The translations under genes were made by a program, and so were the position numbers. Below are positions 1,447-50,854 of a stretch of DNA of 64,000 nucleotides, piece after piece; within the stretch, counting starts at the first letter, position 1, and each line of letters opens with the position of its first letter. The notes beneath the pieces are model-generated. The model was not told where the DNA came from. It worked only from the letters and a program-made list of their open reading frames with translations, and did not search any database. Source of the stretch: Candidatus Bipolaricaulota bacterium. GTDB lineage: Bacteria > Bipolaricaulota > Bipolaricaulia > UBA7950 > UBA9294. The stretch covers positions 1,518 to 65,517 of the forward strand of contig JBFYQX010000052.1 of the NCBI GenBank assembly GCA_041302525.1, read 5' to 3'.

Positions 1447-1545
1447 GGATCCTCCTGGCCATCGCCCTCGTGCCCATCCCGCGCGTCACCTCGATCTTAC
1501 CTGAACCCTCGGCAACCACCCAGGGTCCGCGGAGCGCTCTGGCAC

Positions 1546-1683
1546 CTAGAACGGCCTCCACTTGAGCGTCTCCATCAGCACCATCGCCGCCGCCGCTACC
1601 GTCAACACGACCAACACAGCCTTCCCACGAAACAGCTTCTTCATCTTCTTCTCCCCTTCGCGCGTGAACCCGCCCCACTTCAT
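1546..1683 (-). CDS. Small hydrophobic protein, 45 aa with a single predicted TM helix; copy 1 of a tandem duplicate
   Basis: Reverse complement translates to MKWGGFTREGEKKMKKLFRGKAVLVVLTVAAAAMVLMETLKWRPF. GAGGAG lies upstream of the first ATG and GGGGAG upstream of the internal MKKLF ATG. The six-frame track does not call it because longer spurious ORFs overlap it. Confidence 0.45.
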   Translation of the reverse strand: MKWGGFTREGEKKMKKLFRGKAVLVVLTVAAAAMVLMETLKWRPF

Positions 1684-1708
1684 GAATTGACTCCTCGCCG
1701 CCGTCCGC

Positions 1709-1846
1709 CTAGAACGGCCTCCACTTGAGCGTCTCCATCAGCACCATCGCCGCCGCCGCTACCGTCAACACGACCAACACAGCCTTCCCACGAAACAGCT
1801 TCTTCATCTTCTTCTCCCCTTCGCGATTGAATCCGCCCCACTTCAT
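1709..1846 (-). CDS. Small hydrophobic protein, 45 aa; copy 2 of the tandem duplicate. It differs from copy 1 at 2-3 nucleotides (T7N).
   Basis: The 163-bp unit 1546-1708 is repeated at 1709-1860 with near identity. A GGAGGCAG RBS precedes the ATG at 1846. Confidence 0.45.
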   Translation of the reverse strand: MKWGGFNREGEKKMKKLFRGKAVLVVLTVAAAAMVLMETLKWRPF

Positions 1847-2078
1847 GGTCTGCCTCCTTCTGGCTCTTGCTTGAGGTGCCCCCTCGCGACGCTTCGACAG
1901 TACTCCGTCCAGTACTCTTACAGCAACTGTGCATCATACATACGCGGCAAAGATCCTCGTTTCAAGGGCGCGTGCGCCCCTCGCCCCGCAGGCGTCCCCA
2001 AGGCCCGGCTCGCTTGAGGTTTGACTTCCCCGAAGGGCACGGATACCCTCTGCGGAAGACGGATTGAGAGGTGCCAGA

Positions 2079-3182: not shown

Positions 3183-4307
3183 GTGTTGAGGCGCATCGCC
3201 GCAGTCATCTTTCACGCCCCCCTCGGGACCAGCGAAGGAGAGCGCCTCGTCGAAGCCGCGCGGTGGGCCGCGAGCCTCGGCCTCGCGCGTCGCCTTCGCG
3301 ATGCTGGGGTCAGCGAGCTGTACGTCGTGACCTCCGACGAGGCACGCTGCCCGCGGCCGAGCGGCCTCATCGAGTGGCTTCCCACACCCGGCGCTGAGCC
3401 CTTTCACTTCGGCCACGCTCTTCAGGAACTGATCGCACAACTCGAGCTCGATGGCGTGCTCTACTTCGGCAGCGGGTCGGGAGGGCTCCTGGCCGTGAAC
3501 GAGCTGGCGCGTCTGGCGGAGTTCGCACGTCAGCCCTCGCCGCGCGCCGTGTTCAACAACTTCCACTCGTGCGATTTCTTCGCGCTCGCCGACGCTCGCC
3601 GGGTGCTCGATATCGAGCTTCCCGCGATTGACAACCCGCTGGGGCACACGTTGGCCGACGCCGGCTTCCCCTGCCTCGCGTTGCCGCGGAACGCGGCGAC
3701 GCAGTTCGACATTGACACGCCCACCGAGCTCGCTCTCTTGGCGCGCAGTGCGCACGGCAACGAGGCATTGCGCGCGCACTGCGCCCGGCTGGAGATCGGG
3801 CACCCCACGCTCGACCGCGCGCTCGAGATTCTCACCGACCGCACGGCGTTGACCCTGCTGGTGGGCAGGCTTAGTCCGGTGACGTGGAGTCAGTTCGAAA
3901 CCGAGGTCGCTTGCCGCACCGGCGCGCTGTCCGAAGGACGCGGCCTGCGCGCGCACGCGACGCGATACGTCCCTTGGCTTCGCCAGACGATCGCGCAGGA
4001 CGGTCCCGACATCCTGTTCGAGCGTCTGAAAGAGGCTTGCGACGCCGCCTGGATCGACTCGCGGCCCCTCTTGGCGGAGGCGGGCAAGATGCCGCCGGCC
4101 GGCGACCGGTTCGCAAGCGACCTCTTCCGTCCAGACGAGATCGGCGATCCGACGTGGCGCGCCTTCACCCAGGCGGCGCGGGACGCCGGGATCCCCATCG
4201 TCCTGGGTGGACACAGCCTGGTGAGCGGCGATCTGTACCTGGCGGCCGACGCATGCTGGAAAGGGCGAAACCTAGCTCGTAGACTTCACCCGGAACCCTT
4301 CGTGTGA
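3183..4307 (+). CDS. Hypothetical two-domain protein. The N-terminus is a MobA/CofC-like nucleotidyltransferase fold; the C-terminal domain is of unknown function.
   Basis: 374-aa ORF. The motif ...QFDIDTPTELALL resembles the DxDTPEDL motif of MobA-like NTP transferases. Its stop (TGA 4305-4307) overlaps the region upstream of the following gene. The start is uncertain (GTG 3183 or TTG 3186). Confidence 0.55.
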   Translation: MLRRIAAVIFHAPLGTSEGERLVEAARWAASLGLARRLRDAGVSELYVVTSDEARCPRPSGLIEWLPTPGAEPFHFGHALQELIAQLELDGVLYFGSGSGGLLAVNELARLAEFARQPSPRAVFNNFHSCDFFALADARRVLDIELPAIDNPLGHTLADAGFPCLALPRNAATQFDIDTPTELALLARSAHGNEALRAHCARLEIGHPTLDRALEILTDRTALTLLVGRLSPVTWSQFETEVACRTGALSEGRGLRAHATRYVPWLRQTIAQDGPDILFERLKEACDAAWIDSRPLLAEAGKMPPAGDRFASDLFRPDEIGDPTWRAFTQAARDAGIPIVLGGHSLVSGDLYLAADACWKGRNLARRLHPEPFV

Positions 4308-4321
4308 ACAAAGGAGCGATC

Positions 4322-7300
4322 ATGAGTAGCGGACGTCCCCCGCTTCATGTCCTCGATGTGGATGCCCAGACCGCAGCGCTGATGGCCGCCGAGGAACGAC
4401 GTCAGAGGGAGAAGATCATCCTGATCCCGTCGGAGAGCCTCACGCCGCTCGTGGTGCGGGAAGCGCTCGGCTCGGCCTTCACGAGCGTCTACGCCGAGGG
4501 GTACCCGCGGAAGATGATGATGCGACAGACCGAGGAGCAGCTGGCGGATCTCGACGCACAGCTGGCAAGCTACCGTCGCTACGCGGACCGCCGTTTCTAC
4601 AAGGGGACAGAGATCGCAGACGTCCTCGAGTCATTGGCCGCACGGCGCGCCGCCGAGTGCTTCGCCACGCCGGAGTACCCGGCAGAAGGGATCTACGCCA
4701 ACGTGCAGGCGCTCTCAGGGGCCGCGGCGAACCTGGCCGTGTACGACGCGCTCGTGCAGCCGGGAGAGACGGTCATGGGCATGGCGCTCACCGAAGGGGG
4801 ACACCTTACGCACGGGTCGGAGTTCAACGTCACCGGCCGCAGGTACCGTATCGTCTCCTACGCCATCGACCGCAAGACAGGCAAGCTAGACTACGACAAG
4901 ATCCGCGCCCTGGCCCGTGAGCACCGTCCACGCATGATCATCGGCGGCTTCACGTCGTACCCGTGGCAACCCGACTGGGCCCTGTTCCGCGAAATCGCCG
5001 ACGAGGTTGGAGCGATGCTTCTTGCCGACGTCGCGCACACGGCCGGACTCATCGTCGGAAGGGTCTACCCCAACCCGATTGGACATGCCCACGTCATCTC
5101 GTTTACAACCCACAAGACGCTCTGCGGGGGGCGCGGCGCTGTGATCCTGACGACGAACTCCGAACTCGCCGCGCGAATCGACACGGCGATCTTCCCTGGG
5201 CAACAGGGCGGCCCCCACGTAAACAAGTTCGCCGCCCTCGCGGTCGCGCTTCAGCTGGCGAAGGAACCCGCGTTCACCGCCCTGCAGCAGCGTATCGTGG
5301 AGAACGCGCAGCACCTGGCGCGCGCGCTCCAGGAGAACGGCCTCGCGCTCGCCTACGGGGGCACAAACACCCACCTCTTGCTCGTCGACCTGCGCGAGAT
5401 CAAGACCGAGACCGGGTTCGTCATGATGGGCGAGATCGCCTCGCGCATCCTCGACCTGGTCGGCATCGTGTGCAACAAGAACACCCTCCCCGGCGACACG
5501 AGTGCCGCGGACGCACATGGGATTCGGCTCGGCACGCCGTGGGCGACCCAACGGGGCATGGGCAAACAGGAGATGGAAGCGATCGGCCGGATCGTCGCGC
5601 GGGTTCTGCTCTCGATCCAGCCATTCTCCTACCAGGGGCTGCGCGGCGAGCTGTCGCGCGGCAAGCTCCCGGTGGAGACCCTGGAGAAGGCCCGACAGGA
5701 GGTGCGCGAGATCGTGGCCCGCATCGATCCGCGTCTCGGCGGACGGTTCGACGGCGAGACGCATCGGCAGAGCGGCTCTTCCTGGGACGTCCTGCGCGTC
5801 CGCAGCAGCCGAGCCGGCGCGCTCTTGCAGGAGGCCGCGACGAGCGACCTTCGTACGCTCGCGCCGGCCGGCACGTCGCGCGCTTTCTTCCTCGATGGGG
5901 CCGGCCGGGTTCTCTCGGGCGCCGTGATCGGCATGGTGGGAAGGGACGACTACGTCGTCCTGGTGCCTCCGAGCCGCGGCCGCGAGCTGTGCTCATGGCT
6001 CCAGGGCTTGGCCGAGGGCTATACGTTGTTCGACTCCGAGGACCTCTTCCGCAAGGTGCAGGGGCCGGCCGTGGTCGAACTCGTTGACCCCGCGGCGCTC
6101 CCCGCCTCGGCCGCGACGTGGCTGTCCCTGCGACCCGAAGGGGAGGACGCCGGGGCAGGACAACCGGGCGACGAACTCGCACGGGCCTACCCACAACGCT
6201 TCGCGCTCGACAAGCCCTACTTCGTGGGACTGCCCAAGCTCACCGACCGGGCGACTGCGCCCGCGCCGGCGGCCTTCGCGTGGGCAGGCGACGTCGCCGC
6301 GGGCCTGCGGACGACCCCGCTCCATGATTCCCACGTCGCCCTCGGGGCCAGGCTCGTGCCCTTCGCCGGCTGGGAGATGCCGGTGTGGTACACGTCGGCG
6401 CTCGAGGAGCACCGCGCGGTGCGCCACGCGGCCGGGCTGTTCGACCTCGGCCACATGGGCGTCTTTCACGTCGAGGGAGACCACGCGACGGAGTTCCTGA
6501 ACGCCGTGACCTCGAACTACGCGGGCTGGCTCGAGGACGGTCAGTCCCATTACGCCTACCTGTTCGGCCCCGACGGCGCCGTGATCGACGACATCTGGGT
6601 GTACCGCCGCGCTTGGAACCGGTACCTCGTCATCGTCAACGCGTCGAACGAGCCGAAGGATTGGGATTGGCTGAACGGAGTGAATGAGGGCCGGTACTCA
6701 GTCGACCTCGGCCGCCCAGGCTGCCGGGTCACGCCGGGCGTCGTGCTCCGCGACCTGAAGCGTGAGCGCGGCGTAGTGGACGTCGCCCTCCAAGGGCCCA
6801 AGAGCCAGGCGGTGTTGGCCCAGCTCCTCGGCCCGGCCGAACGGCGCTGGGTCGAAGGACTCGAACGCACGGAGTTCTGCGAGATCTCCGTCGATGGCCA
6901 TCAGCTGCTCGTGGCGCGAACAGGGTACACGGGCGAGCCGCTCGGCTACGAGATCTACGCCGCTGCGCCCGACGCGCTCTGGCTGTGGGAGCGCCTCCTC
7001 GACGTTGGGCGCCCCCTGGGGCTCCTCCCCTGTGGCCTCGCGTCACGCGACTCAACGCGCACGGAGGCCGGGCTGCCGCTCTACGGACACGAGATCGCCG
7101 GCCCGCACGGAGTGAATCCGTTCGAGGCAGGATTTGGCCCCTACGTCAAGCTGCACAAGTGCTTCTTCATCGGGCGAAAGGCATGCGTCGACGCGGCGCG
7201 CGCGCTCCGGCGCGAGGTGGTCCGCTTTGAGGCCGACGCGGGGGCTCGCCCCGTGCGCGAAGGCGCCCTGACCCTAGATCGCAACGGGAACGTGCTCGGG

Positions 7301-12268: not shown

Positions 12269-12613
12269 ATGCCAGAGGGGGCGAAGAAGCGACGGGGAAC
12301 GGGCGCTCTCCATGGCGCGCCGAAGCAGCCGGCGGCCGCCACGCCACACAAGGGTCGAGACGCCGGGTCCACGGAGGTCCAGCGAGCCAAGGAACTGACC
12401 GGGGGCAAGATCCTGTGTCCCGTGTGCGACGCGGGGCTCGATCTTGACAAGGACGAGCTCAGTCTGTGGAATCGCGTGCGCTGCGAGGAGTGTGAGGCGC
12501 TGCTCGAGGTGGTCGACGAGGATCCGATTCGCCTGGAGTGGATCGAAGAGGACGACGACTTCGAAGAGGACGACGACCTGGACGCGGACGACGAGGACGA
12601 CGACTACTTCTAG
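12269..12613 (+). CDS. LysW-like zinc-ribbon protein with a basic disordered N-terminus and a long polyacidic C-terminal tail ending DDDYF
   Basis: GAAGGAG RBS before the ATG. The core CPVCDAGLDLD...VRCEECEALLEVVDEDPIRLEWIEE parallels the LysW/ArgW carrier-protein architecture (CPxC...CxxC, LEVV, DP-RLE, acidic tail). The C-terminus is Phe, not Glu. Confidence 0.7.
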   Translation: MPEGAKKRRGTGALHGAPKQPAAATPHKGRDAGSTEVQRAKELTGGKILCPVCDAGLDLDKDELSLWNRVRCEECEALLEVVDEDPIRLEWIEEDDDFEEDDDLDADDEDDDYF

Positions 12614-40390: not shown

Positions 40391-40442
40391 GACCGTCTCC
40401 TGGTGACAAAAGGGGCGACGCCGCAGGCGGACTGCAGCGCTG

Positions 40443-40515
40443 TGGGTGGTACAGGGCTCGAACCTGTGACCTCATGCACGTCAAGCATGCGCTCTCCCAA
40501 CTGAGCTAACCACCC
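40443..40515 (-). tRNA. tRNA-Val (anticodon GAC)
   Basis: Reverse complement is GGGTGGTTAGCTCAGTTGGGAGAGCGCATGCTTGACGTGCATGAGGTCACAGGTTCGAGCCCTGTACCACCCA. Cloverleaf with a GGTTCGAGCC T-loop and anticodon loop CTTGACG. Confidence 0.85.
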
Positions 40516-40524
40516 CTGAGGCTG

Positions 40525-40596
40525 AGGCGGCGACCGGATTCGAACCGGTGAATCAGGGATTTGCAGTCCCTTGCCTTACCACTTGGCTACACCGCC
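40525..40596 (-). tRNA. tRNA-Cys (anticodon GCA)
   Basis: Reverse complement is GGCGGTGTAGCCAAGTGGTAAGGCAAGGGACTGCAAATCCCTGATTCACCGGTTCGAATCCGGTCGCCGCCT. Anticodon loop CTGCAAA, T-loop TTCGAAT. Confidence 0.85.
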
Positions 40597-40729
40597 ACGC
40601 CGTCGGAGTATACGGACTCGCGAAGACCCGGTCAATCGCGCGTACAGGCCTCGACGTCGCGGCGCGCCCCTTGCCTATCTAGTGAGGTTGGATGTAAGAT
40701 CAGAGGTGATCCTGAGAAAGGAGATCCTT

Positions 40730-42553
40730 ATGAAGATACCTCTGCGGCCGTGGATTCTCGCCACAGCCTTCGTCGCGACGGCGGGCGCGCTCGCCTGCGC
40801 CGGGCCGGTTCCTACGATCTCACGGGCGGTCGGCCAGGCGACGCCGACGCGCGCCGAGCCCCTCTTCTTCTCGGTCGTCTTCTCGGAGCCGGTCACGGGA
40901 TTCGACGCATCCGACGTCATCCTGTCGATCCCCGCAACCGTCACGGTGTCCGCGAGCCCGCCGCATGACGGGGCCACCTACGCGGTCTCGGTCTCGGCCG
41001 TGGCGACGGACGGACAGGTCTGTCTGGCGATCCCGGCCGAAGCGGCCGTCGGCCTCGACGGCGCACCGAGCGAGTCCTGCGCCGGCGCCGACCCGTGCGT
41101 GACGCTCGATCGACAGCCACCGCCGCCGCCGGAACTCGTCGAACCCGCAGACGCCGCGGCGACCTCCGACCTGTCGCCGCGCTTCGCCTGGACCGCGCCC
41201 GCCGACCTCTCAGGCGTCGCCAAGTACGAGATCGAGATCCGCGGCCCGAAGCCGCGCGACTACGTGACGACGCGGACGTCGTACACGCCAACGCTCGGGA
41301 TCGAGGGGATCTACACCTGGCGCGTGAACGCGCTCGATCGCGCCGAAAACCTGGGAGACTGGACCTCGTGGCGGACGCTCGTCCTCGACGCGACCCCGCC
41401 CACCGCGCCAGGCTTTGGGACCGCGTCGGTTGCGCCGGGAGCTTGGTCGCGATCCGAGGAGGTCATCCTCGATGTCACATCGGCGTCAGACGCGGGGTCC
41501 GGCGTCGGCGGCTACTGCGTCGCGTGGACGCCGGCGTCGGACAGCGCGCCGGGCGGGAGCGCTAACCGCGGCCCGGACTGGAACTGCGAGGTCCACGCGT
41601 TCCCGCTGGACGGCATCTGGTGGGGCCACGCGGTGGCCGTCGACACCGCCGGCAACCGCAGCGCGCCCTGTCACGCTGGCCCCTTTCTCATCGATCGCAC
41701 GCCGCCGACCTTGGGCGGATGGAGTGGAACGCTTCGCCTGCCCAACGACCCGGGCTGCCTGTGGGCAACCGCCGACTGGTCGGCGGTCGTCGCCGACGAC
41801 GCCCTCGACCCCGCGCCGAGCCTCGCGTTCTCCGTCCCCGCCGGCGCTCGACTCCCGATTGGAGCGTCCGACGTCCTGGTCACCGCCGCGGACCGCGCCG
41901 GGAACACCGTGACGGAACGTATCGAGGTCCTCGTCGACAACACCGAGCCGCCGGTCGTCCGCATCGACGCCCCGCGGCCGGGGGCGCGGATCCCGCTCGG
42001 CGCGGCCATCGCGCCCACCTGGGCGTCGACGTCGCTCGCACCCGTCCGCACGGTGCGGACAGAAGGCCTGGTGGGCGGCGCGCTCGACGCGCGGTCCCCA
42101 GGTCGCCACGTATTCGTCGTCACGGTGACCGACGCAACCGGCCTCTCGGCCGCGGCAGAAGTCCACTACGTCGTGACGTACGCTGCGGTCCGCGTCGACT
42201 TTCTCCGCGTCGCCCCGAACGGCGCGGAGCAGACTCTCTCGCCCAGCCCCGCGGCCCAAGCGGGCGAAGGTCCCGTGCCACGCATCGGGCTCGCCGAGTG
42301 GCTGCGCGTCCGCTGCGCGGTCGACGCGTCGCTCGCCGGCCTCCCGCGAGCACCGGTCACGTTCTCGCTCGTCCGCGTGGATCCGGCGCGTCCAGGCGAA
42401 CCAGTCCTGGAGCGCGTCGGCGTGCTGCGCGATGACGGGATGACGTACGCGCTCGACCTCCCGCTCGTCGTCTTCCGACCCGGGCGCTACACCCTGTGGC
42501 TCGGCTTCGTCGACGCGACAAGCGTGGAGTTTCGGTTCGACCTCGCCGGCTGA
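40730..42553 (+). CDS. Secreted protein with several Ig-like/FN3-like repeats (signal peptide; 607 aa)
   Basis: ATG 40730 follows AAAGGAG. Signal peptide MKIPLRPWILATAFVATAGALACA. Repeated beta-sandwich-type motifs (SGVAKYEIEI, GSGVGGYCVAW, PPTAPG...). Confidence 0.75.
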   Translation: MKIPLRPWILATAFVATAGALACAGPVPTISRAVGQATPTRAEPLFFSVVFSEPVTGFDASDVILSIPATVTVSASPPHDGATYAVSVSAVATDGQVCLAIPAEAAVGLDGAPSESCAGADPCVTLDRQPPPPPELVEPADAAATSDLSPRFAWTAPADLSGVAKYEIEIRGPKPRDYVTTRTSYTPTLGIEGIYTWRVNALDRAENLGDWTSWRTLVLDATPPTAPGFGTASVAPGAWSRSEEVILDVTSASDAGSGVGGYCVAWTPASDSAPGGSANRGPDWNCEVHAFPLDGIWWGHAVAVDTAGNRSAPCHAGPFLIDRTPPTLGGWSGTLRLPNDPGCLWATADWSAVVADDALDPAPSLAFSVPAGARLPIGASDVLVTAADRAGNTVTERIEVLVDNTEPPVVRIDAPRPGARIPLGAAIAPTWASTSLAPVRTVRTEGLVGGALDARSPGRHVFVVTVTDATGLSAAAEVHYVVTYAAVRVDFLRVAPNGAEQTLSPSPAAQAGEGPVPRIGLAEWLRVRCAVDASLAGLPRAPVTFSLVRVDPARPGEPVLERVGVLRDDGMTYALDLPLVVFRPGRYTLWLGFVDATSVEFRFDLAG

Positions 42554-42555
42554 GA

Positions 42556-43566
42556 GGAGCGAAACCGCAGAGGCCGCAGAGGGCGCAGAGGGAGCCCGGA
42601 CGCTGGAGCGTCGCATCCTCTTGCGACGTTGGCAGGTTGAACGAGGCACCGCAGAGATCGCAGCGACGCAGACACCGGGAACCTGATTCACCGCAGAGGG
42701 CGCGGAGGTCGCAGAGGAAGCCCGGTCGCTGGAGCGTCGCACGTGAGTGCGACGTTGGCAGGTCGAACAAGGCGCCGCAGAGACCGCGGCGGTGCAAGTA
42801 CCGGGGACCTGATTCACCGCAGAGGGCGCAGAGGCCACAAAGGAGGACTGGTTCGCCGTGGTATTGCACGTGAGTGGGACGTTGGCATGTCGAACAGCGC
42901 GCCGCAGAGATCGCAGCGGCGCAGATACCGGGAACCCGATTCACCGCAGAGGGCGCGGAGGTCGCAGAGGGAGCCCGGACGCTGGAGCGTCGCATCTTCT
43001 TGCGACGTTGGCATGTCGAACGAGGCGCCGCAGAGATCGCAGCAGGGCAAAAGTGCCGGGAACCTGACTCACCGCAGAGGCCGCAGAGGGCGCAAAGGCC
43101 AAAGAGGAAGACAAGTTCGCCGTGGCGTGGCACGTGAGTGCGACGTTGGCGTGTCGAGCAAGGCGCCGCAGAGATCGCGGCGGTGCAAGTGCCGGGAACC
43201 TGATTCACCGCAGGGGACGCTGAAGGCGCAGAGGAAGACAGGTTCGCTGGAGCGTCGCACGTGAGTGCGACGTTGGCATGTCGAACAGCGCGCCGCAGAG
43301 ATCGCAGCAGGGCAAGTGCCGGGAACCTGATTCACCGCGGAGGACGCTGAGGGCGCAGAGGAAGACAGGTTCGCCGTGGTATCGCACGTGAGTGGGGATG
43401 TTGGCATGTCGAACAGCGCGCCGCAGAGATCGCAGCAGGGCAAGTGCCGGGAACCTGATTCACCGCGGAGGACGCTGAGGGCGCAGAGGAAGACAGGTTC
43501 GCCGTGGCGTGGCACGTGAGTGCGACGTTGGCATGTCGAACAGGGCGTCGTGACCGGGCTCACGAG
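42556..43566. repeat. Tandem array of about 8 degenerate 126-139 bp units. Each unit carries a GNRA-capped hairpin (CGTCGCAC-GTGA-GTGCGACG) and a second hairpin (GCCGC-agagatcgca-GCGGC).
   Basis: The recurring string CCGGGAACCTGATTCACCGC[AG]GAG sits near 42664, 42791, 42930, 43056, 43192, 43318 and 43447. The whole unit is conserved with point variation, so there are no unique spacers. Unit lengths are mostly not multiples of 3, which makes overlapping track ORFs spurious. Confidence 0.8.
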
Positions 43567-43768
43567 TCAGCGTCCGGGCGACTCGATGGTCGGCCGCAGT
43601 TGCTCCGCGTCTTCTGTTCGCTACGCGTTGCGGGGTGTTGCGAGCTGTGCCCGGCGAGTGCAGAGGACGTTGCGCTTTCGCCCGTTCTCGGTCGTCTCTG
43701 CGCCCTCGGCGCGACGGCCTCCGCGCGCTCTGCGTTGCTCTTGTGCTCTGGGTTTTCCGAGCGCGCGG

Positions 43769-45214
<1,446 letters not shown>

Positions 45215-46069
45215 CTAGTTCCCTCTCAGGGCCTCGGCGCCGCCGAGGATGTCGGCGATCTCCCGAGTGATCGACTGCTGCCGCGCCCGGTTGTAGGAAC
45301 GCCGCAGGGTGTTGAGCAACTCCTCCGCGTTGTCGGTCGCGTTCTTCATCGCCTGGCGCCGGATGGCCTCCTCGCTCGTCTTCGTCTCGATCATGGCCGC
45401 GTACAGCTTGACGCGAACGTAGAGCGGGAGCGTGTGGGCGATGGCGGTCGCCAGGTCCGGCTCGACGAGCGCCTCGCCCGGCTCCGCCGCGACGGCCACC
45501 GGCAGGAGGTCCGTCACGGTGGGCTTCTGCGACAGATCAGAGACAAACCGCATGTACACCAAGCGAACCCGGCCCACCTCGCCGGCGAGGAAGAGGCCCA
45601 TCGCCTCGTCGGCGATGCGGGCCGCGGCCTCCCACGTCGGCGGCTCGTAGACGTTGGCGTAGACGCGCAAGGGCTCGATCCCACGCCGCGCGAAGTAGGC
45701 GCGCGCCTTTTCGCCGCCGGCCAGGATCCGTGCGCCCGGCCCCGCCGCGACCAGTTCGTCCTCGGCCGCCTTGTTCAGTTCGCCCTTATAGCGCTCGCAC
45801 AGACCGCGGTCGGAGTTGAGGACCAGCACGCCCGCCTTCTCCGGGCCGCGATCGACGCGGAGCGGGTGGAGCGGAGCGTCGGCCGCCTGCTGTCCGACTA
45901 GCTTTCGCGTAAACGCCTCGAGGTCGGCCACGTACGGGCGCACGTGGGCGAGCCGCTTCTTGAGCCGCGTGACCTTGGTCATCGCGATCGCGTTCATCGC
46001 GTTGGTGATTTGGGCGATGTCCTCGATATTCGAGATCCGCCCTTTGATCGCGCGAACGTACTGCGCCAT
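45215..46069 (-). CDS. atpG: F1Fo ATP synthase gamma subunit
   Basis: 284 aa. N-terminal MAQYVRAIKGRISNIEDIAQITNAM... and the C-terminal helix ...IQGMQ motif. AGGAGGGG lies upstream. Confidence 0.9.
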   Translation of the reverse strand: MAQYVRAIKGRISNIEDIAQITNAMNAIAMTKVTRLKKRLAHVRPYVADLEAFTRKLVGQQAADAPLHPLRVDRGPEKAGVLVLNSDRGLCERYKGELNKAAEDELVAAGPGARILAGGEKARAYFARRGIEPLRVYANVYEPPTWEAAARIADEAMGLFLAGEVGRVRLVYMRFVSDLSQKPTVTDLLPVAVAAEPGEALVEPDLATAIAHTLPLYVRVKLYAAMIETKTSEEAIRRQAMKNATDNAEELLNTLRRSYNRARQQSITREIADILGGAEALRGN

Positions 46070-46282
46070 TGCCTAGCCCCTCCTGCTCTCCACGCCCGGC
46101 ATCGCTTGTCGGCGGAGGGCGATGTCCTCGAGTTTCGAGATCCGCCCTTTGATCGCGCGAACGTACTGCGCCATCGCCTAGCCCCTCCTGCTCTCCACGC
46201 CCGGCATCGCTTGTCGGCGGAGGGCGATGTCCTCGATACTCGAGATCCGCCCTTTGATCGCCCGCACGTCGTGAGTCACGGG
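46070..46282 (-). repeat. Two extra tandem copies of the atpG 5' region (leader with RBS plus the first 17 codons, about 112 nt each), between the atpA stop and the atpG start
   Basis: Copy 2 (46070-46181) is near-identical to the authentic leader and start. It has its own RBS and ATG and would encode a 33-aa read-out peptide, MAQYVRAIKGRISKLEDIALRRQAMPGVESRRG. Copy 3 (46182-46282) is more diverged and has no ATG. Confidence 0.8.
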
Positions 46283-47860
46283 CTACGCTCCGAACCGCTT
46301 CTTGAAGTCGGCGACGGCCTGATCGAGCTTGGCGCGGTACTCGGGCGTCAGCTGGCGCCGCTCGCGCAGCTCGCGCACGAGGTCCTCGCGTTGCTCGTGC
46401 AGGTACCGCAGCCACTCCTCCTCGAAGCGGCGAACGGCTCCCACCTCGATGTCGGCGAGGTGGTTCTGGACCGCGACGTAGAGCGACAGCACCTGGTCCT
46501 CGACTGGCATCGGCTTGTACTGCCCCTGCCCGAGGATCTGCATCAGCCGGTCGCCGCGCGCGAGCTGGGCCTTGGACTCGTCGTCGAGGTCGCTCGAGAA
46601 CTCGGCGAACGCCTCGAGCTCGCGGTACTGCGACAGCTCGAGCCGCAGCTCGCCGGCGATCTGCGACATGGCACGGATCTGCGCCGCGCCGCCAACGCGC
46701 GACACCGAGTACCCGACGTTGATCGCCGGACGGACGCCCTGGTTGAACAGGTTGGTCTCGAGGTAGATCTGGCCGTCGGTGATGGAGATCACGTTCGTCG
46801 GGATGTACGACGTGATGTCGCCGGCCTTCGTCTCAATGATCGGGAACGCCGTGAGCGAGCCGCCGCCGCGATGCGCCGACGGCACCGGGCGCTCGTCTTC
46901 AAGCGGCGCGCCGTTTCCTGAGCCCTCGACGCGCCCGTGAAGGTCGGACAGGCGCACGGCCCGTTCGAGCAGGCGCGAGTGGGTGTAGAAGATGTCGCCC
47001 GGGTACGCCTCGCGGCCGGGCGGCCGCCGCAGCAAGAGCGCGATCTCGCGGTAGGCGACCGCGTGCTTCGACAGGTCGTCATAGACGATGAACGCGTCGT
47101 CGCCGCGGTAGGTGAAGTACTCGGCCATCGCGCAGCCAGCGTACGGCGCCAGGTACTGCATGGTCGCCGGCGTGTGAGCGTCAGCCACAACGACGATCGT
47201 GTACGAGAGCGCGTCGTGACGCGACAGCGTGTCAACAATCTTGGCAACCGTCGACGCCTTCTGGCCGATGGCCACGTAGACGCAGGTCACATCCTTGCCC
47301 TTCTGATTGATGATCGTGTCGAGCGCGATCGCCGTCTTGCCGGTTCGCCGGTCGCCAATGATCAGCTCGCGCTGGCCTCGCCCGATCGGCGTCATCGCGT
47401 CGACGGCCTTGAGACCAGTCTGAAGGGGCGTGTCGACGGGCTGGCGATCGATGACACCCGGCGCCTTCGACTCGGTGCGCCGCGTCTCGGTCGACGCGAT
47501 CGGCCCCCTACCGTCAAGCGGACGCCCCAGCGGATCGACGACACGGCCGAGAAACCCCTCGCCCACCGGCGTCTCGAGCACGTGCCCGGTGCGACGAACC
47601 TCGTCGCCCTCCTTGACCTTCTCGGTGTCGCCAAACAGGGCGACCCCGACCGACTCCTCCTCCAGATTGAGGATGAGCCCGTACACGTCGTTCCCGAACG
47701 TCGCGATCTCCGAGGACATCGCGCGATCGAGCCCGTAGACGTGCGCGATCCCGTCGCCAACCTGGGCGACGACGCCGATCTCCTGGGTCTGGAAGTCGTA
47801 CTGGAAGCCCCGCAGGTGCTCTTTCAGGACGGCCGCGATGTCGTCTTTGCGCGTCGTCAT
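46283..47860 (-). CDS. atpA: F1Fo ATP synthase alpha subunit
   Basis: 525 aa. P-loop [11 protein letters not shown]. There is an insertion of about 20 aa ([22 protein letters not shown]) before the conserved GGGSLTA segment. Confidence 0.9.
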
Positions 47861-48351
47861 CTCTCCCCCGATGCTCCAAGCGTCTGATGCAGGCGATCGA
47901 GCTTCGCCTTGAGCGTGCCGTCCAGGGTTCGGCCCTCGATCTCGATGCGGACCCCGGCGAGCACGGCTGTGTCCACGCTCTCTTCGATCTTCACCTGCAT
48001 CCGCAGCGCGCGGCCGAGCCGATCGGCGAGCTGCGCCCGCTCGTCGTCTGACAGCGCTTGCGCGGTGACCACGCGGACGCGCACGACGTTCTCCGACTCG
48101 GCGCGCACGGACAGGAACTCGCCAAGCACGAGGTCGCGAACGAGGAGACCGATGAGGTGGCGGAATCCGTCGCTCGCCTCGGGAAACGCCTCGCGCAGAA
48201 CCTGCCCTGCCGGATCAGCAGCGTCCGGTGCCCGGTCGGTTGCCGCAGCCAGCTCGCGCAGCTCTCGTTCCAGCGCGTCGGTCGACTTCTCACGCGCCGC
48301 GAGCGTATAGAGGTCTTGCGCGATCTTCCGCGCGACGTCGCGAGATCTCAC
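47857..48351 (-). CDS. atpH: F1Fo ATP synthase delta (OSCP) subunit
   Basis: 164 aa. ATGA-type overlaps link it to atpA and atpF. Delta-family C-terminus (...[19 protein letters not shown]). Confidence 0.8.
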
Positions 48352-48872
48352 CGGCGCTCCCTCACCCCGTCGAGCGCGGCCTCATCGATCTCGGCCAGGA
48401 GCTGATCGAGGAGCTTGCGGTGATCGTCGATCCGCACCTCGCGCCGCAAGAGCTGCTCGGTGCCGAGCACGACCATCTCCGCGTACTGCGCCTTGAGGTC
48501 GGCGACCAGCTGCTCTCGCTCGTGGGCGACCTGCACGCGCGCATCGGCCAGGATGCGATCGGCCTCGCCCTTGGCGCGCTCTTTGGCCTCGACAAGGCCC
48601 TTCTCGGCGCGCTGCCGGGCCTCCTCAAGGATCTGGGCCGACTCTTTCTTCACCGCCGCGAGCTCGCCTTGGCGCGCCGCGACGAGCTCGGCCGCCTTCT
48701 CTTCGGCCGCCTTGGCCGTCGCCATCCGCGCGGCAATCAGGTCGCGGCGCCGATCGAGGTACTGGAGCGCCGGCCTCCACAGCAGCCAGCGCAGGAGAAC
48801 CAACAGGACCGCGAACTGAAGCAGGGTGATGACGAGCGTCCAGTTGAAATCAATGATCCTACCCCACTCCAC
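48348..48872 (-). CDS. atpF: F1Fo ATP synthase subunit b
   Basis: N-terminal TM helix followed by a long charged coiled coil (AEEKAAEL...EAKERAKGEADRI...). Confidence 0.85.
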   Translation of the reverse strand: MEWGRIIDFNWTLVITLLQFAVLLVLLRWLLWRPALQYLDRRRDLIAARMATAKAAEEKAAELVAARQGELAAVKKESAQILEEARQRAEKGLVEAKERAKGEADRILADARVQVAHEREQLVADLKAQYAEMVVLGTEQLLRREVRIDDHRKLLDQLLAEIDEAALDGVRERR

Positions 48873-48887
48873 GCTATCCCTTCCTCT

Positions 48888-49163
48888 CTAGACGACGAAC
48901 AACAGAACGATCGAGATGAGCAGCGCGTAGATCGCCGTCGTCTCGATCAAGGCGCAGCCGATGAGCATCGTGCTGAAGAGCGCTGGCCGCGACTCAGGCT
49001 GGCGCGCGATGCCATCGAGCGCGTGGGAGACGGCGTTCCCGAGCCCGAGCCCCGGGCCGAACGCCCCAATCCCCATGCACAGCCCGGCCGCGAGGTACTT
49101 GGCCACTTGCACCAAGTCCGCGCCGCTGATTCCCGCCGCTGCAGTCTGGGCCTCCTGAAGCAT
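48888..49163 (-). CDS. atpE: F1Fo ATP synthase subunit c
   Basis: 91 aa from MLQEAQ, with GGAGGG RBS. Two-helix hairpin with a conserved carboxylate in helix 2 (LIETTAIYALLI). The track ORF over-extends upstream. Confidence 0.85.
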   Translation of the reverse strand: MLQEAQTAAAGISGADLVQVAKYLAAGLCMGIGAFGPGLGLGNAVSHALDGIARQPESRPALFSTMLIGCALIETTAIYALLISIVLLFVV

Positions 49164-49171
49164 GCACCCTC

Positions 49172-49891
49172 CTAGTGTTTCTCGGTCGCCAAATTGATGT
49201 AGGCAACCGCCAGAATCGAGAAAACGAAGGCCTGAATCAGCCCGAACCCGATCCCAAAGACGATGCGCAACGCGATGGGAACGACGAACGGCTCGAGCTT
49301 GGCCATGACAATCGACACAAGGACCATCTCGGCGAACACATTGCCGAACAACCGGAACCCGTGCGACAGCGGACGAGCCACAACCTCGGACAGGATCATG
49401 AACGGCGACAGCCACCACGGGGAGAAGAACTCCTTCTTGTATCCGCGGAGTCCTTTGGTGCGGATCAGGAAGAAGTGGACGAGGACAAGGACCATGAGCG
49501 CCAGACCCAGTGTGACGTTGGGGTCGGTCGTGGGCGCTTCGAGTCCCGGGAGGAGCGAGAGCCAGTTCGACGCGAGGATGAACAGGAACAGGCTCGCGAT
49601 GAACGGGAACATCTTCCGCCCGAACTCCTTCGAGCTAAAGTTCCCGAGAAGCTGGCTGTCCAGCTGCTCCATCACAAAGTCAAGCGCCGCCTGCGTGCGG
49701 GTCGGCTTGTCCTCGACGGGCTGCCGCAGCCCGCGCCGCAGAACCAGGGCGAGGGCGATCACGATGAGCGAGGCGATGGCGGACAGGACAATCGTCTTGG
49801 CGTCGACCTGGACGGTGAGGCCACCGATGTGCCAGGTAGCGATCTCTTTCTTGCCGAGATGCTCTATCAGCTTCCCGAGCTCTTCTCGCAC
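49172..49891 (-). CDS. atpB: F1Fo ATP synthase subunit a
   Basis: GTG start (VREELGKL) follows GGAGGGG. Conserved Arg region of TM4 (...SHGFRLFGNVFAEMVL...) and C-terminal helices. Confidence 0.85.
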   Translation of the reverse strand: MREELGKLIEHLGKKEIATWHIGGLTVQVDAKTIVLSAIASLIVIALALVLRRGLRQPVEDKPTRTQAALDFVMEQLDSQLLGNFSSKEFGRKMFPFIASLFLFILASNWLSLLPGLEAPTTDPNVTLGLALMVLVLVHFFLIRTKGLRGYKKEFFSPWWLSPFMILSEVVARPLSHGFRLFGNVFAEMVLVSIVMAKLEPFVVPIALRIVFGIGFGLIQAFVFSILAVAYINLATEKH

Positions 49892-50277
49892 GACGCCCCT
49901 CCCCCTGCCGCAGACCGCCGGAAGAGCAAGCTTAGCTGCGCCAGAGCCAATCCTCCACCCGCGCCGAGGAACGTCTCGCGTCCGAGCGCCACGGCGATCC
50001 ACGCCAGGCAGAGCCCGAGGAGGAGGTACCGCCCGAGGCCAGACAGGATAGCCACGATCGCGCCCCGGCGCGGCGCTTCGCCGCGGGCGAGCGTTGCAAG
50101 CGTGACCAGGAGAAGCGCCGCATTCACAAGGTAGAGGGCGAGGCCGAGGCCCACGCCGAGCGCGGCGGCCCGCCAACCGACTGCGCAGAGAGTCGCCGCC
50201 AGCGCTCCGCAGAGGCCGAACGAGACGCCGACGCGCAGGGCGCCGGCGATCCCGGGAAGCCGCGGCAGACTCCGCAT
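49867..50277 (-). CDS. AtpI/AtpZ-like small membrane protein at the head of the ATP synthase operon
   Basis: Hydrophobic 4-TM-like ORF (MRSLPRLPGIAGALRVGVSFGLCGALAATL...). The position is as expected for atpI. Overlaps the atpB start by 25 nt. No sequence-level certainty. Confidence 0.45.
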   Translation of the reverse strand: MRSLPRLPGIAGALRVGVSFGLCGALAATLCAVGWRAAALGVGLGLALYLVNAALLLVTLATLARGEAPRRGAIVAILSGLGRYLLLGLCLAWIAVALGRETFLGAGGGLALAQLSLLFRRSAAGGGASCEKSSGS

Positions 50278-50293
50278 GGGTTGGGAGGCAGAG

Positions 50294-50854
50294 CTAGATC
50301 GTCTGGATCTGCTTTGCCTTCTGGTCGATGAGCGCGTCGACCGCCTTCGTGTTCTCATGGACCACCTCGTCGGTCTTCTCGCGGTACCGACGGTGGTCGT
50401 CTTCGGAGATCTGGCCGTCTTTCTTCATCGCGTCGAGCTTCTCGTTCGCCTCGCGGCGGACGTTGCGCAACGCGACCTTGGTCTCCTCGCCGCGCGTCTT
50501 GATGACCTTCGACAGCTCGCGGCGGCGCTCCTCGGAGAGCTTGGGCACCTTGATCCGCAGCACGTTGCCGTCGCTCGCCGGGTTGAGCCCCAGGTCCGCG
50601 GACAGGATCGCCTTCTCAACCGACCCCATCTGTGTCTTGTCGAACGGCTGGACCACGAGGAGGTTCGCGTCCGGCGCGGCGATCGTCGCGAGCTGCTTCA
50701 GCGGCATGCGGGCCCCGTAGTAGTCGACGACCACGTCCTCGACCATCGCCGGGTTCGCCCGTCCGGTCTGGACCTTCGCGAGGTGCTCCTTGAGCACGTC
50801 GAGGGTCCGCTTCATGTGCTCGACCATCTCCCGTTGCACCTGCTCTGCTGGCAT
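50294..50854 (-). CDS. frr: Ribosome recycling factor
   Basis: 186 aa, typical RRF (...VRVEYYG...LRNVRRDANDKLK...-like motifs: VVVDYYGARMPLKQLATI, ALRNVRREANEKL). Confidence 0.9.
   Translation of the reverse strand: MPAEQVQREMVEHMKRTLDVLKEHLAKVQTGRANPAMVEDVVVDYYGARMPLKQLATIAAPDANLLVVQPFDKTQMGSVEKAILSADLGLNPASDGNVLRIKVPKLSEERRRELSKVIKTRGEETKVALRNVRREANEKLDAMKKDGQISEDDHRRYREKTDEVVHENTKAVDALIDQKAKQIQTI

Follow-up and report, generated by a model that had tools for sequence, protein, structure and literature searches.

A stretch of 64,000 nucleotides from a Candidatus Bipolaricaulota bacterium (contig JBFYQX010000052.1, positions 1,518 to 65,517; hereafter, the window) contains eight head-to-tail copies of a unit of about 127 bp, lying between the convergent 3' ends of atpD, for the F1 beta subunit, and of a gene for an immunoglobulin-like (Ig-like) surface protein. 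We consider it probable that this array arose by lineage-specific tandem amplification from a 127-bp stretch within a decayed composite element of the repetitive extragenic palindrome (REP) type. The array belongs to an ordinary kind of bacterial repeat; it does not represent a new RNA family, nor does it stand in for atpC.

Tandem Repeats Finder detected a sole array at the locus (42564-43547, period 127, 7.7 copies, 81% matches, 4% indels, score 1126), and setting the unit borders by anchoring on CACCGCAGAG resolved it into units u1 to u8:

42563..43587, plus strand: tandem array u1-u8, head-to-tail (Tandem Repeats Finder, unit alignment, nhmmer unit profile, identity matrix)
42563-42688: u1
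42689-42814: u2
42815-42941: u3
42942-43069: u4
43070-43205: u5
43206-43332: u6
43333-43460: u7
43461-43587: u8
42565..42591, plus strand: arm of 9-nt sub-repeats, (C/G)CGCAGAGG three times, which opens every unit (u1 given as the example)

Units u1 to u7 measure 126, 126, 127, 128, 136, 127 and 128 nt, and the last third of u8 is diverged and grades into the unique right flank. Pairwise identity among units ranges from 68 to 91% in the identity matrix, u6 and u7 being the closest pair (91%) and u8 the most distant unit. The arms equivalent to that of u1 start at approximately 42691, 42817, 42944, 43072, 43208, 43335 and 43463. A unit profile found, with nhmmer, exactly eight copies in the window, all of them in the array. 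Likewise, the 18-mer ACGCAGAGGGCGCAGAGG occurs 15 times in the window with up to three mismatches, as compared with 0.22 occurrences expected, and all but one of these lie within the atpD/Ig-like intergenic region.

Stop codons interrupt all six frames across the array, most unit lengths are not divisible by three, and the two long minus-strand open reading frames (ORFs) over it, whose translations are rich in Cys, Arg and Ala, gave no match in Pfam. A preliminary description, made from the sequence alone, had proposed a non-coding array of about eight units located between a tRNA-linked Ig-like gene and the 3' end of atpD, and had used the unit lengths as an argument against coding; repeat detection, anchoring, six-frame stops and the Pfam search bear out these points, with a measured range of 126-136 bp. 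The same description had each unit carrying a conserved 24-nt string. This string, CCGGGAACCTGATTCACCGCAGAG, has a single exact occurrence (42675), and one or two bases differ at the other junctions.

The unit has relatives outside the window. Metagenome contigs were scanned with the interior of the unit (GTGCGACGTTGGCRKGTCGARC), and 13 of them matched, one of which (L041) bears the array itself. The unit profile matched nine of the 12 others at E<=1e-6 (best, 3.6e-20), in single or inverted copies at unrelated loci, and gave weak matches in L031, L034 and L039 (E 0.002-0.004). Conversely, a profile built from the dispersed doublets alone recovered each of the eight window units (E 4e-12 to 1e-4), with no further match in the window and none in the sister loci. 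Since both profiles match each other's sequences, the homology is reciprocal. As to whether the unit is dispersed or array-specific, a check suggested in the preliminary description, it exists as dispersed single copies in metagenome contigs and only as array copies in the window.

The intact dispersed element is about 190 nt long, folds with z = -5.3 versus shuffles and consists of an outer palindrome of 9-nt repeats (CGCAGAGG / CCTCTGCG) around two inverted, GTAG-tagged hairpins. Its first half reads (CGCAGAGG)n, AAGACAGGTTCACT, GTAG-CGTCGCAC-CTTGT-GTGCGACG, TTGGCGTGTCGAAC…, and its second half CGTCGGAG-ACAAG-CTCCGACG-CTAC, …GGTTCACTCG…, (CCTCTGCG)n; read from its tag, the second hairpin type is GTAG-CGTCGGAG-CTTGT-CTCCGACG. 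The outer arms, which resemble terminal inverted repeats (TIRs), form in intact copies a perfect stem of about 17-27 bp. Along the approximately 89 kb of dispersed contigs there are 11 perfect 8-bp hairpins of each type, with loops of 3-5 nt, and all 22 are preceded by GTAG. Three stem positions, all with compensated changes (CAC/GTG vs GAG/CTC), distinguish the two types, and inverted pairs with tags 67 nt apart occur in L029, L030, L033 and L035. The tag GTAGCGTCG appears 55 times in these 89 kb (about one expected; 0.62 per kb vs 0.0125 expected), with no occurrence outside the array in the window and none in 53 kb of named relatives. One GTAGCGTCG at L021 9650 was discarded as a REP, as it corresponds to the ribosome-binding/start region of a gene.

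Loops in the dispersed copies are CTTGT, CTT, TCTGT or a 60-nt insertion and, because they vary so among dispersed DNA repeats, the GTGA loop found in the window is a local accident. The insertion was seen in L036 (682-800) and in L031, L034 and L039, where about 60 nt that themselves form a hairpin (GCGCTC…GAGCGC) replace the CTTGT loop of the first REP; the loop of this family therefore tolerates nested insertions. We also observed, beside full REP hairpins in L038 (246-303) and L032 (11937-11990), a 24-nt tandem motif starting with the REP tag (GTAGCGTCGGCACGACAAACAAGG x 2.4), which adds one more layer to the mosaic. The edge of the REP-bearing contig L039 (1-97, minus strand) holds the 5' end of a bacterial 23S rRNA (Rfam, 53 bits), which could assist in placing its organism if the whole operon were available.

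At other loci, too, the family is found inserted between convergent genes and amplified in tandem. In L033 (3432-4354), convergent CoA-transferase and AMP-ligase-like genes are separated by 920 nt of GTAG hairpins and 9-mer arms arranged as a mosaic; their orthologues in L043 (88-93% nucleotide identity) share an overlap of 8 nt (5339-5346), which makes this a presence/absence polymorphism. Upstream of the CoA-transferase gene, L043 bears a separate array (3529-4001, period 120, 4.0 copies, 87% matches), each unit of which consists solely of the palindromic module of 9-nt repeats: TCACGCGAAG-CGCGCCAAG-ATCGCCAAGAGG … CCTTGGCG-CCCTTTGCG-TTCTTGGCGTGA.

As for the source of the REP-rich contigs, the LeuC protein of L030 shares 88% identity with proteins assigned by name to Candidatus Bipolaricaulota or Bipolaricaulis, including one from the assembly of L028, a relative described below. 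The contigs richest in repeats are L031, L032 and L038. Taxonomic placement by the CoA-transferase was uninformative, and tblastx against the window showed no shared genes. Scanning species-representative genomes with the unit junction CCGGGRACCYGAYTCACCGC produced 17 matches, all single, from unrelated taxa and lacking any extended similarity, which we attribute to chance, and scans of viral contigs produced zero matches and one chance match.

When compared with the intact element, the window locus retains the following parts (REP-A and REP-B' denote the counterparts of the first and of the inverted second REP):

42735..42754 (u2) and 43253-43272 (u6), plus strand: REP-A-derived hairpin, perfect CGTCGCAC-GTGA-GTGCGACG
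42609-42628 (u1) and 42988-43007 (u4), plus strand: REP-A hairpin with 7-bp stem and 6-nt loop TCCTCT/TCTTCT
43126-43145 (u5) and 43508-43527 (u8), plus strand: REP-A hairpin with one internal G.G mismatch
42862-42881 (u3) and 43381-43400 (u7), plus strand: REP-A hairpin decayed or lost
43546..43566, plus strand: decayed inverted second REP (REP-B'), CGTCGTGACCGGGCTCACGAG, present only after the last unit (alignment A2)
43590..43622, minus strand: decayed inner right arm of the ancestral composite element (…GGCCGCAGTTGCTCCGCGTCTTCTG…), aligning with the (CCTCTGCG)n arm of L029 and L035
43687..43743, minus strand: outer right palindromic arm of inverted 9-nt repeats (TCTCTGCGCCCTCGGCG … CCTCCGCGCGCTCTGCGTTGCTCTTG; inverted repeats I1-I8)

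The arm of 9-nt sub-repeats that opens each unit shares homology with the left palindromic arms found both in the dispersed composite elements and between the two genes in the sister species. The stem is preceded by the tag GGAG in u1, u2, u4 and u6, and by GTGG in u3, u5, u7 and u8, each one substitution away from GTAG, and the GTGG units are those with decayed stems. The decay of the hairpin, which affects half of the units, is uncompensated, and the hairpins of four units have predicted energies of -14 to -17 kcal/mol. According to the preliminary description, every unit carried a perfect 8-bp stem with a GUGA loop, of GNRA type throughout, together with a second GCCGC...GCGGC hairpin. These generalizations fail: the exact 20-mer is confined to u2 and u6, the 6-nt loops of u1 and u4 are not GNRA, and the second hairpin was seen in u2 and u5 only.

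The second REP is a mere remnant in u1-u7, and the inverted doublet is present in the window only at u8 and its flank, in decayed form. There, REP-B' (CGTCGTGACCGGGCTCACGAG) aligns with the CGTCGGAG-ACAAG-CTCCGACG-CTAC of the dispersed elements. With blastn, L029 3707-3852 matched window positions 43473-43616 (75% over 149 nt), and the alignment of u8 and the right flank runs through the decayed second hairpin and the inner right arm, indicating that the locus is one full element of which the left 127 nt were copied in tandem.

We compared the locus with those of the closest relatives. The window AtpD is 100% identical to proteins from two NCBI contigs of metagenome-assembled genomes (MAGs; L018 and L019), with 98-99% identity in the flanking DNA, and the AtpD homologues that bear names are from Candidatus Bipolaricaulota. 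A gap of 1088-1215 nt between atpD and the Ig-like gene is found only in this species: the two stops are 176 nt apart in L020-L023 (AtpD 94-95% identical) and 12 nt apart in L028 (84%), and the neighbourhood is rearranged in L024-L027 (91-93%). The unit profile revealed no array in the sister loci L020-L028. At third codon positions of atpD, the window and the sister species share only 68-70% identity, indicating that these are well-separated species and that the 9-32% divergence among units fits an origin after their split.

The 176-nt region of L020-L023 is itself palindromic, with left arm CAAGAGCAGAAACGCAGAGGGCGCAGAG… and right arm …CCTCTGCGCCCTCTGCGTCGGACTCTTG, and its fold has an outer stem of some 27 bp (z = -2.7). 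The window retains both arms, the left one as the (CGCAGAGG)x3 that opens the array and the right one, orthologous to that of the sister palindrome, at 43687-43743. This outer 9-mer palindrome, kept between species, may hold the real role at the convergent junction.

The number of units differs among four assemblies with 97-99% identical flanks, which have eight, seven, seven and at most six. Their order is u1-u8 in the window, u1-u5, a u7/u3-like unit and u8 in L018, u1-u6 and u8 in L019, and …u4, u5, u8 in L041, the fourth assembly of the array, whose contig ends inside it. All differences fall at the end nearest atpD, the site of the most similar pair of units, and may represent either real copy-number variation or a partial collapse by short-read assemblers. 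Homology to dispersed GTAG palindromic elements, together with these differences between assemblies, supports the REP-like or minisatellite option raised in the preliminary description.

From these results, a plausible history would begin with one composite element at a site that already bore the 9-mer palindrome, as the sister loci do. The left portion of this element (arm, first REP, spacer and second-REP remnant) would then have been copied head-to-tail, by unequal recombination or replication slippage, after which the units would have diverged, the GTAG tag mutated and half of the stems decayed. Because of the mutated tags and decayed stems, the window element is probably no longer mobile. 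The array is also probably dispensable, because it is absent from the sister species and variable in size, and is most likely neutral or selfish DNA. Any effect would most plausibly be a by-product: transcripts reading through from either atpD or the Ig-like gene would run into hairpins that could impede 3' exonucleases or promote termination, as has been suggested for REPs.

The dispersed relatives agree in many respects with GTAG-tagged REPs, which are palindromes of 20-40 bp with a stem of 6-9 bp and an unpaired GTAG tag, are found as inverted dimers, and are extragenic, favouring convergent or unidirectional gene gaps near 3' ends; their clusters can be reiterated in tandem with flanking DNA, and their dimers can be nested in long palindromes (Di Nocera et al. 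2013, PMC3733652). Like these, the dispersed relatives show an unpaired GTAG, an 8-bp GC-rich stem and a short loop, are multi-copy and extragenic, and are often inverted dimers at convergent or 3' positions. Unlike them, the window copies have mutated tags (GGAG/GTGG) and partly decayed stems, occupy one locus in 64 kb and form a 127-bp unit, longer than a REP, that includes the 9-nt-repeat arm and spacer DNA. Neither Bipolaricaulota nor the present stem sequence is among the REP families described in the literature compared.

REP doublets are described as a unit called REPIN and thought to be mobilized by RAYT transposases (PMC3337134; PMC3116915, Bertels & Rainey 2011). The two inverted REPs of the dispersed element, with their tags 67 nt apart, similarly fold into a larger hairpin; they differ from REPINs in that the two REPs diverge at the three compensated stem positions and the doublet is nested in the 9-nt-repeat palindrome and, in the window, in that the decayed second REP is present only with the terminal unit. 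A mosaic of REPs and other short motifs is also what defines the bacterial interspersed mosaic elements (BIMEs) of E. coli (PMC2817692). The array resembles BIMEs in this mosaic make-up and in being clustered and amplified extragenically downstream of genes, whereas BIME REPs alternate regularly in orientation and the eight window units are all head-to-tail. Tandem expansion is undergone by BIME-2 of E. coli. Mycobacterial interspersed repetitive units (MIRUs), in turn, are intergenic tandem units of approximately 50-130 bp, dispersed at many loci, with strain-variable copy number and not derived from REPs. As in such variable-number tandem repeats, the window units are tandem, intergenic and non-coding, and their count differs between assemblies, with the caveat of short reads; unlike in these, one locus is known here and the unit has a traceable REP-type ancestor.

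Several observations weigh against deriving the array from a REP-type element. The window units lack the canonical GTAG tag and, of the two tags present, GTGG fits the GTRG form of the published degenerate consensus (GYRG/GTRG) and GGAG falls outside it. All eight units are on one strand, not alternating as in classical BIMEs. There is no other copy, nor any dispersed repeat, in the 64-kb window, and no copies were found in 53 kb of named relatives (L044-L046, comprising the MAG region of L028 and two other close relatives). The absence from these relatives makes the distribution patchy, which is usual for REP systems. The unit counts come from short-read MAG and metagenome assemblies, in which u6 and u7, being 91% identical, could be collapsed. 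Finally, no RAYT (a Y1 transposase) appeared in the ~344 kb sampled, through Pfam searches on 20 selected ORFs, the Pfam labels of fetched contigs and tblastn with an E. coli RayT sequence; RAYTs are usually single-copy, and a sample of this size is therefore too small to exclude one.

The failure to find a RAYT would also suit a composite element that is a miniature inverted-repeat transposable element (MITE), with the 9-nt-repeat arms acting as TIRs for a DDE transposase, the GTAG hairpins as cargo and the array as an amplified MITE fragment. MITEs are non-coding, 70-300 bp long, and carry TIRs of 15-30 bp and a target-site duplication. Such a nature would agree with the perfect stem formed by the outer arms of intact copies, with the composition of these arms as 9-mer arrays of variable number, like multiple transposase-binding sites, and with the existence of arm-only modules that amplify independently (L043, L031). 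We nevertheless judge it unlikely, given that we identified neither a target-site duplication nor an insertion/empty-site pair with clean ends, that no transposase of any kind lies near any copy, that the GTAG hairpin doublet is the best conserved part and bears the published REP signature, and that REP dimers in long palindromes are already described (PMC3733652). Also unlikely is that the composite element represents an undescribed family of non-autonomous mobile DNA in Bipolaricaulota, inserting at convergent gene ends, with tandem amplification (as in this array and the 120-nt x 4 array of L043) as a regular way of growing and with arrays serving as bidirectional transcription barriers; here, the GTAG-hairpin doublet would be nested in arms of 9-nt repeats recognized by an unnamed protein. 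Very unlikely, in our opinion, is that the atp operon or the adjacent gene has the array as a selected functional element, be it a multi-hairpin bidirectional terminator, an insulator or an mRNA-stabilizing 3' untranslated region whose copy number tunes expression. Its position exactly between convergent 3' ends, the stable hairpins of four units and the conservation of the outer palindrome between species that share just 68-70% of atpD third positions could be taken in its favour, and roles in termination and mRNA stabilization have been put forward for REPs (PMC3733652). Yet sister species manage on 12 or 176 nt, half of the units have decayed hairpins, unit counts vary between assemblies of the same species, and our scans showed no T-tracts after the stems and terminator-like sites at chance level.

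The proposal, made in the preliminary description, that the array encodes tandem small RNAs or an undescribed structured RNA family could draw on the recurrent hairpin, which does have a GNRA loop in some units, and on one possible compensatory change, from G-C to A-U, in u7 and in the fifth unit of L018 (L018_u5). We consider it highly improbable, and the recommended searches for an RNA family did not support it. Rfam (15) gave no match at the gathering threshold in the window or at the E-value threshold in the array, the best sub-threshold candidate being Acido-Lenti-1 (20.1 bits vs 37), and nothing relevant at either threshold in the REP-rich contigs. Single units fold no better than shuffles (z -1.96 to +0.76), the covariation term across units is negligible (-0.49 kcal/mol), no promoter-like sites above chance were found per unit, the array is absent from sister species, and the units are homologous to dispersed DNA repeats with differing loops. 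Scarcely credible, finally, are three other readings of the region: a coding repeat, a degraded atpC and an assembly artefact. Long minus-strand ORFs do exist, and a public gene call in L018 (7787-8710) places over the array a 307-aa ORF that overlaps the Ig-like gene at its 3' end; this ORF has no Pfam match and is almost certainly spurious, and the six-frame stops and the unit lengths speak against coding. A degraded atpC is contradicted by tblastn with AtpC, blank in the window, and by arrayless relatives that also lack atpC after atpD, and an artefact by the presence of the array in four independent assemblies, with units 9-32% diverged.

Three further candidates were tried and rejected. 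A sigma-54-type reading of TTGGCAT… did not fit, by eye. A parS or centromere-like site is at odds with a hairpin that is not a perfect palindrome, and no partition or transposase genes were seen among the scanned ORFs over 39 kb and 17 kb on either side. A self-cleaving ribozyme, of the kind found in tandem satellites, had no match in Rfam, and the CUGAUUC/CGAAC strings are, by eye, unlike the hammerhead core.

Two apparent surprises of the locus, a candidate new structured RNA and an atpC anomaly, are thus removed. In exchange, REP/REPIN-type elements, with their decay and tandem amplification, are documented in the uncultivated phylum Candidatus Bipolaricaulota, for which the literature compared holds no description of REP-type repeats. 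In practical terms, gene callers set spurious ORFs over the array, such as that of 307 aa in L018, and assemblies break or collapse there, as in L041; array copy number could serve as a strain marker.

The genes that border the array are:

40571..42553, plus strand: Ig-like surface protein gene (Big_13/HYR, sub-threshold), convergent with atpD; its stop is 9 nt before the array
43769..45193, minus strand: atpD, F1 beta subunit (Pfam); its stop is 181 nt from the array end

Upstream of the Ig-like gene are tRNA-Val and tRNA-Cys, and its true start is probably downstream of these tRNA genes (40442-40596). The atpD gene is the last of an operon on the minus strand, with the order atpI-like/B/E/F/H/A/G/D (region 43769-50300), in which atpH, atpA, atpG and atpD were confirmed by Pfam. 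The array had been described as sitting where atpC would normally be. Indeed, there is no atpC downstream of atpD, and tblastn with the AtpC sequences of E. coli and B. subtilis found no match in the window; the gap, however, is clade-wide, since atpC never follows atpD in nine related loci (among L018-L028), arrayless ones included. The missing atpC is therefore unrelated to the array.

Two other tandem duplications were observed in the window. Within the atp operon, a 105-bp sequence is repeated 2.5 times (46012-46269, minus strand; 94% matches) between the atpA stop (46283) and the atpG start (46069), spanning the 5' end of atpG and 47 nt upstream, including the ribosome-binding site. It yields two decoy ORFs of 33 codons before the real atpG (starts 46279 and 46174: …VRAIKGRIS.(I/L)EDIALRRQAMPGVESRRG*). 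This duplication is present in L018, L019 and L041 and absent in other relatives, where the gap between atpA and atpG is 3 nt. The second, at 1545-1847 (minus strand; 163 bp x 1.9, 97% matches), copies a small ORF together with its ribosome-binding site; the duplicated ORF, MKKLFRGKAVLVVLTVAAAAMVLMETLKWRPF* (starts 1807 and 1644), would encode a putative membrane peptide of 32 aa. With the array, these make three tandem duplications in the window, which suggests that the lineage tolerates or readily generates them. In addition, a periodic repeat of 9/18 nt (CGACGAGGA-like, 6.7 copies) at 12543-12603 falls within a predicted ORF (12269-12613) and probably codes for an acidic stretch of low complexity.

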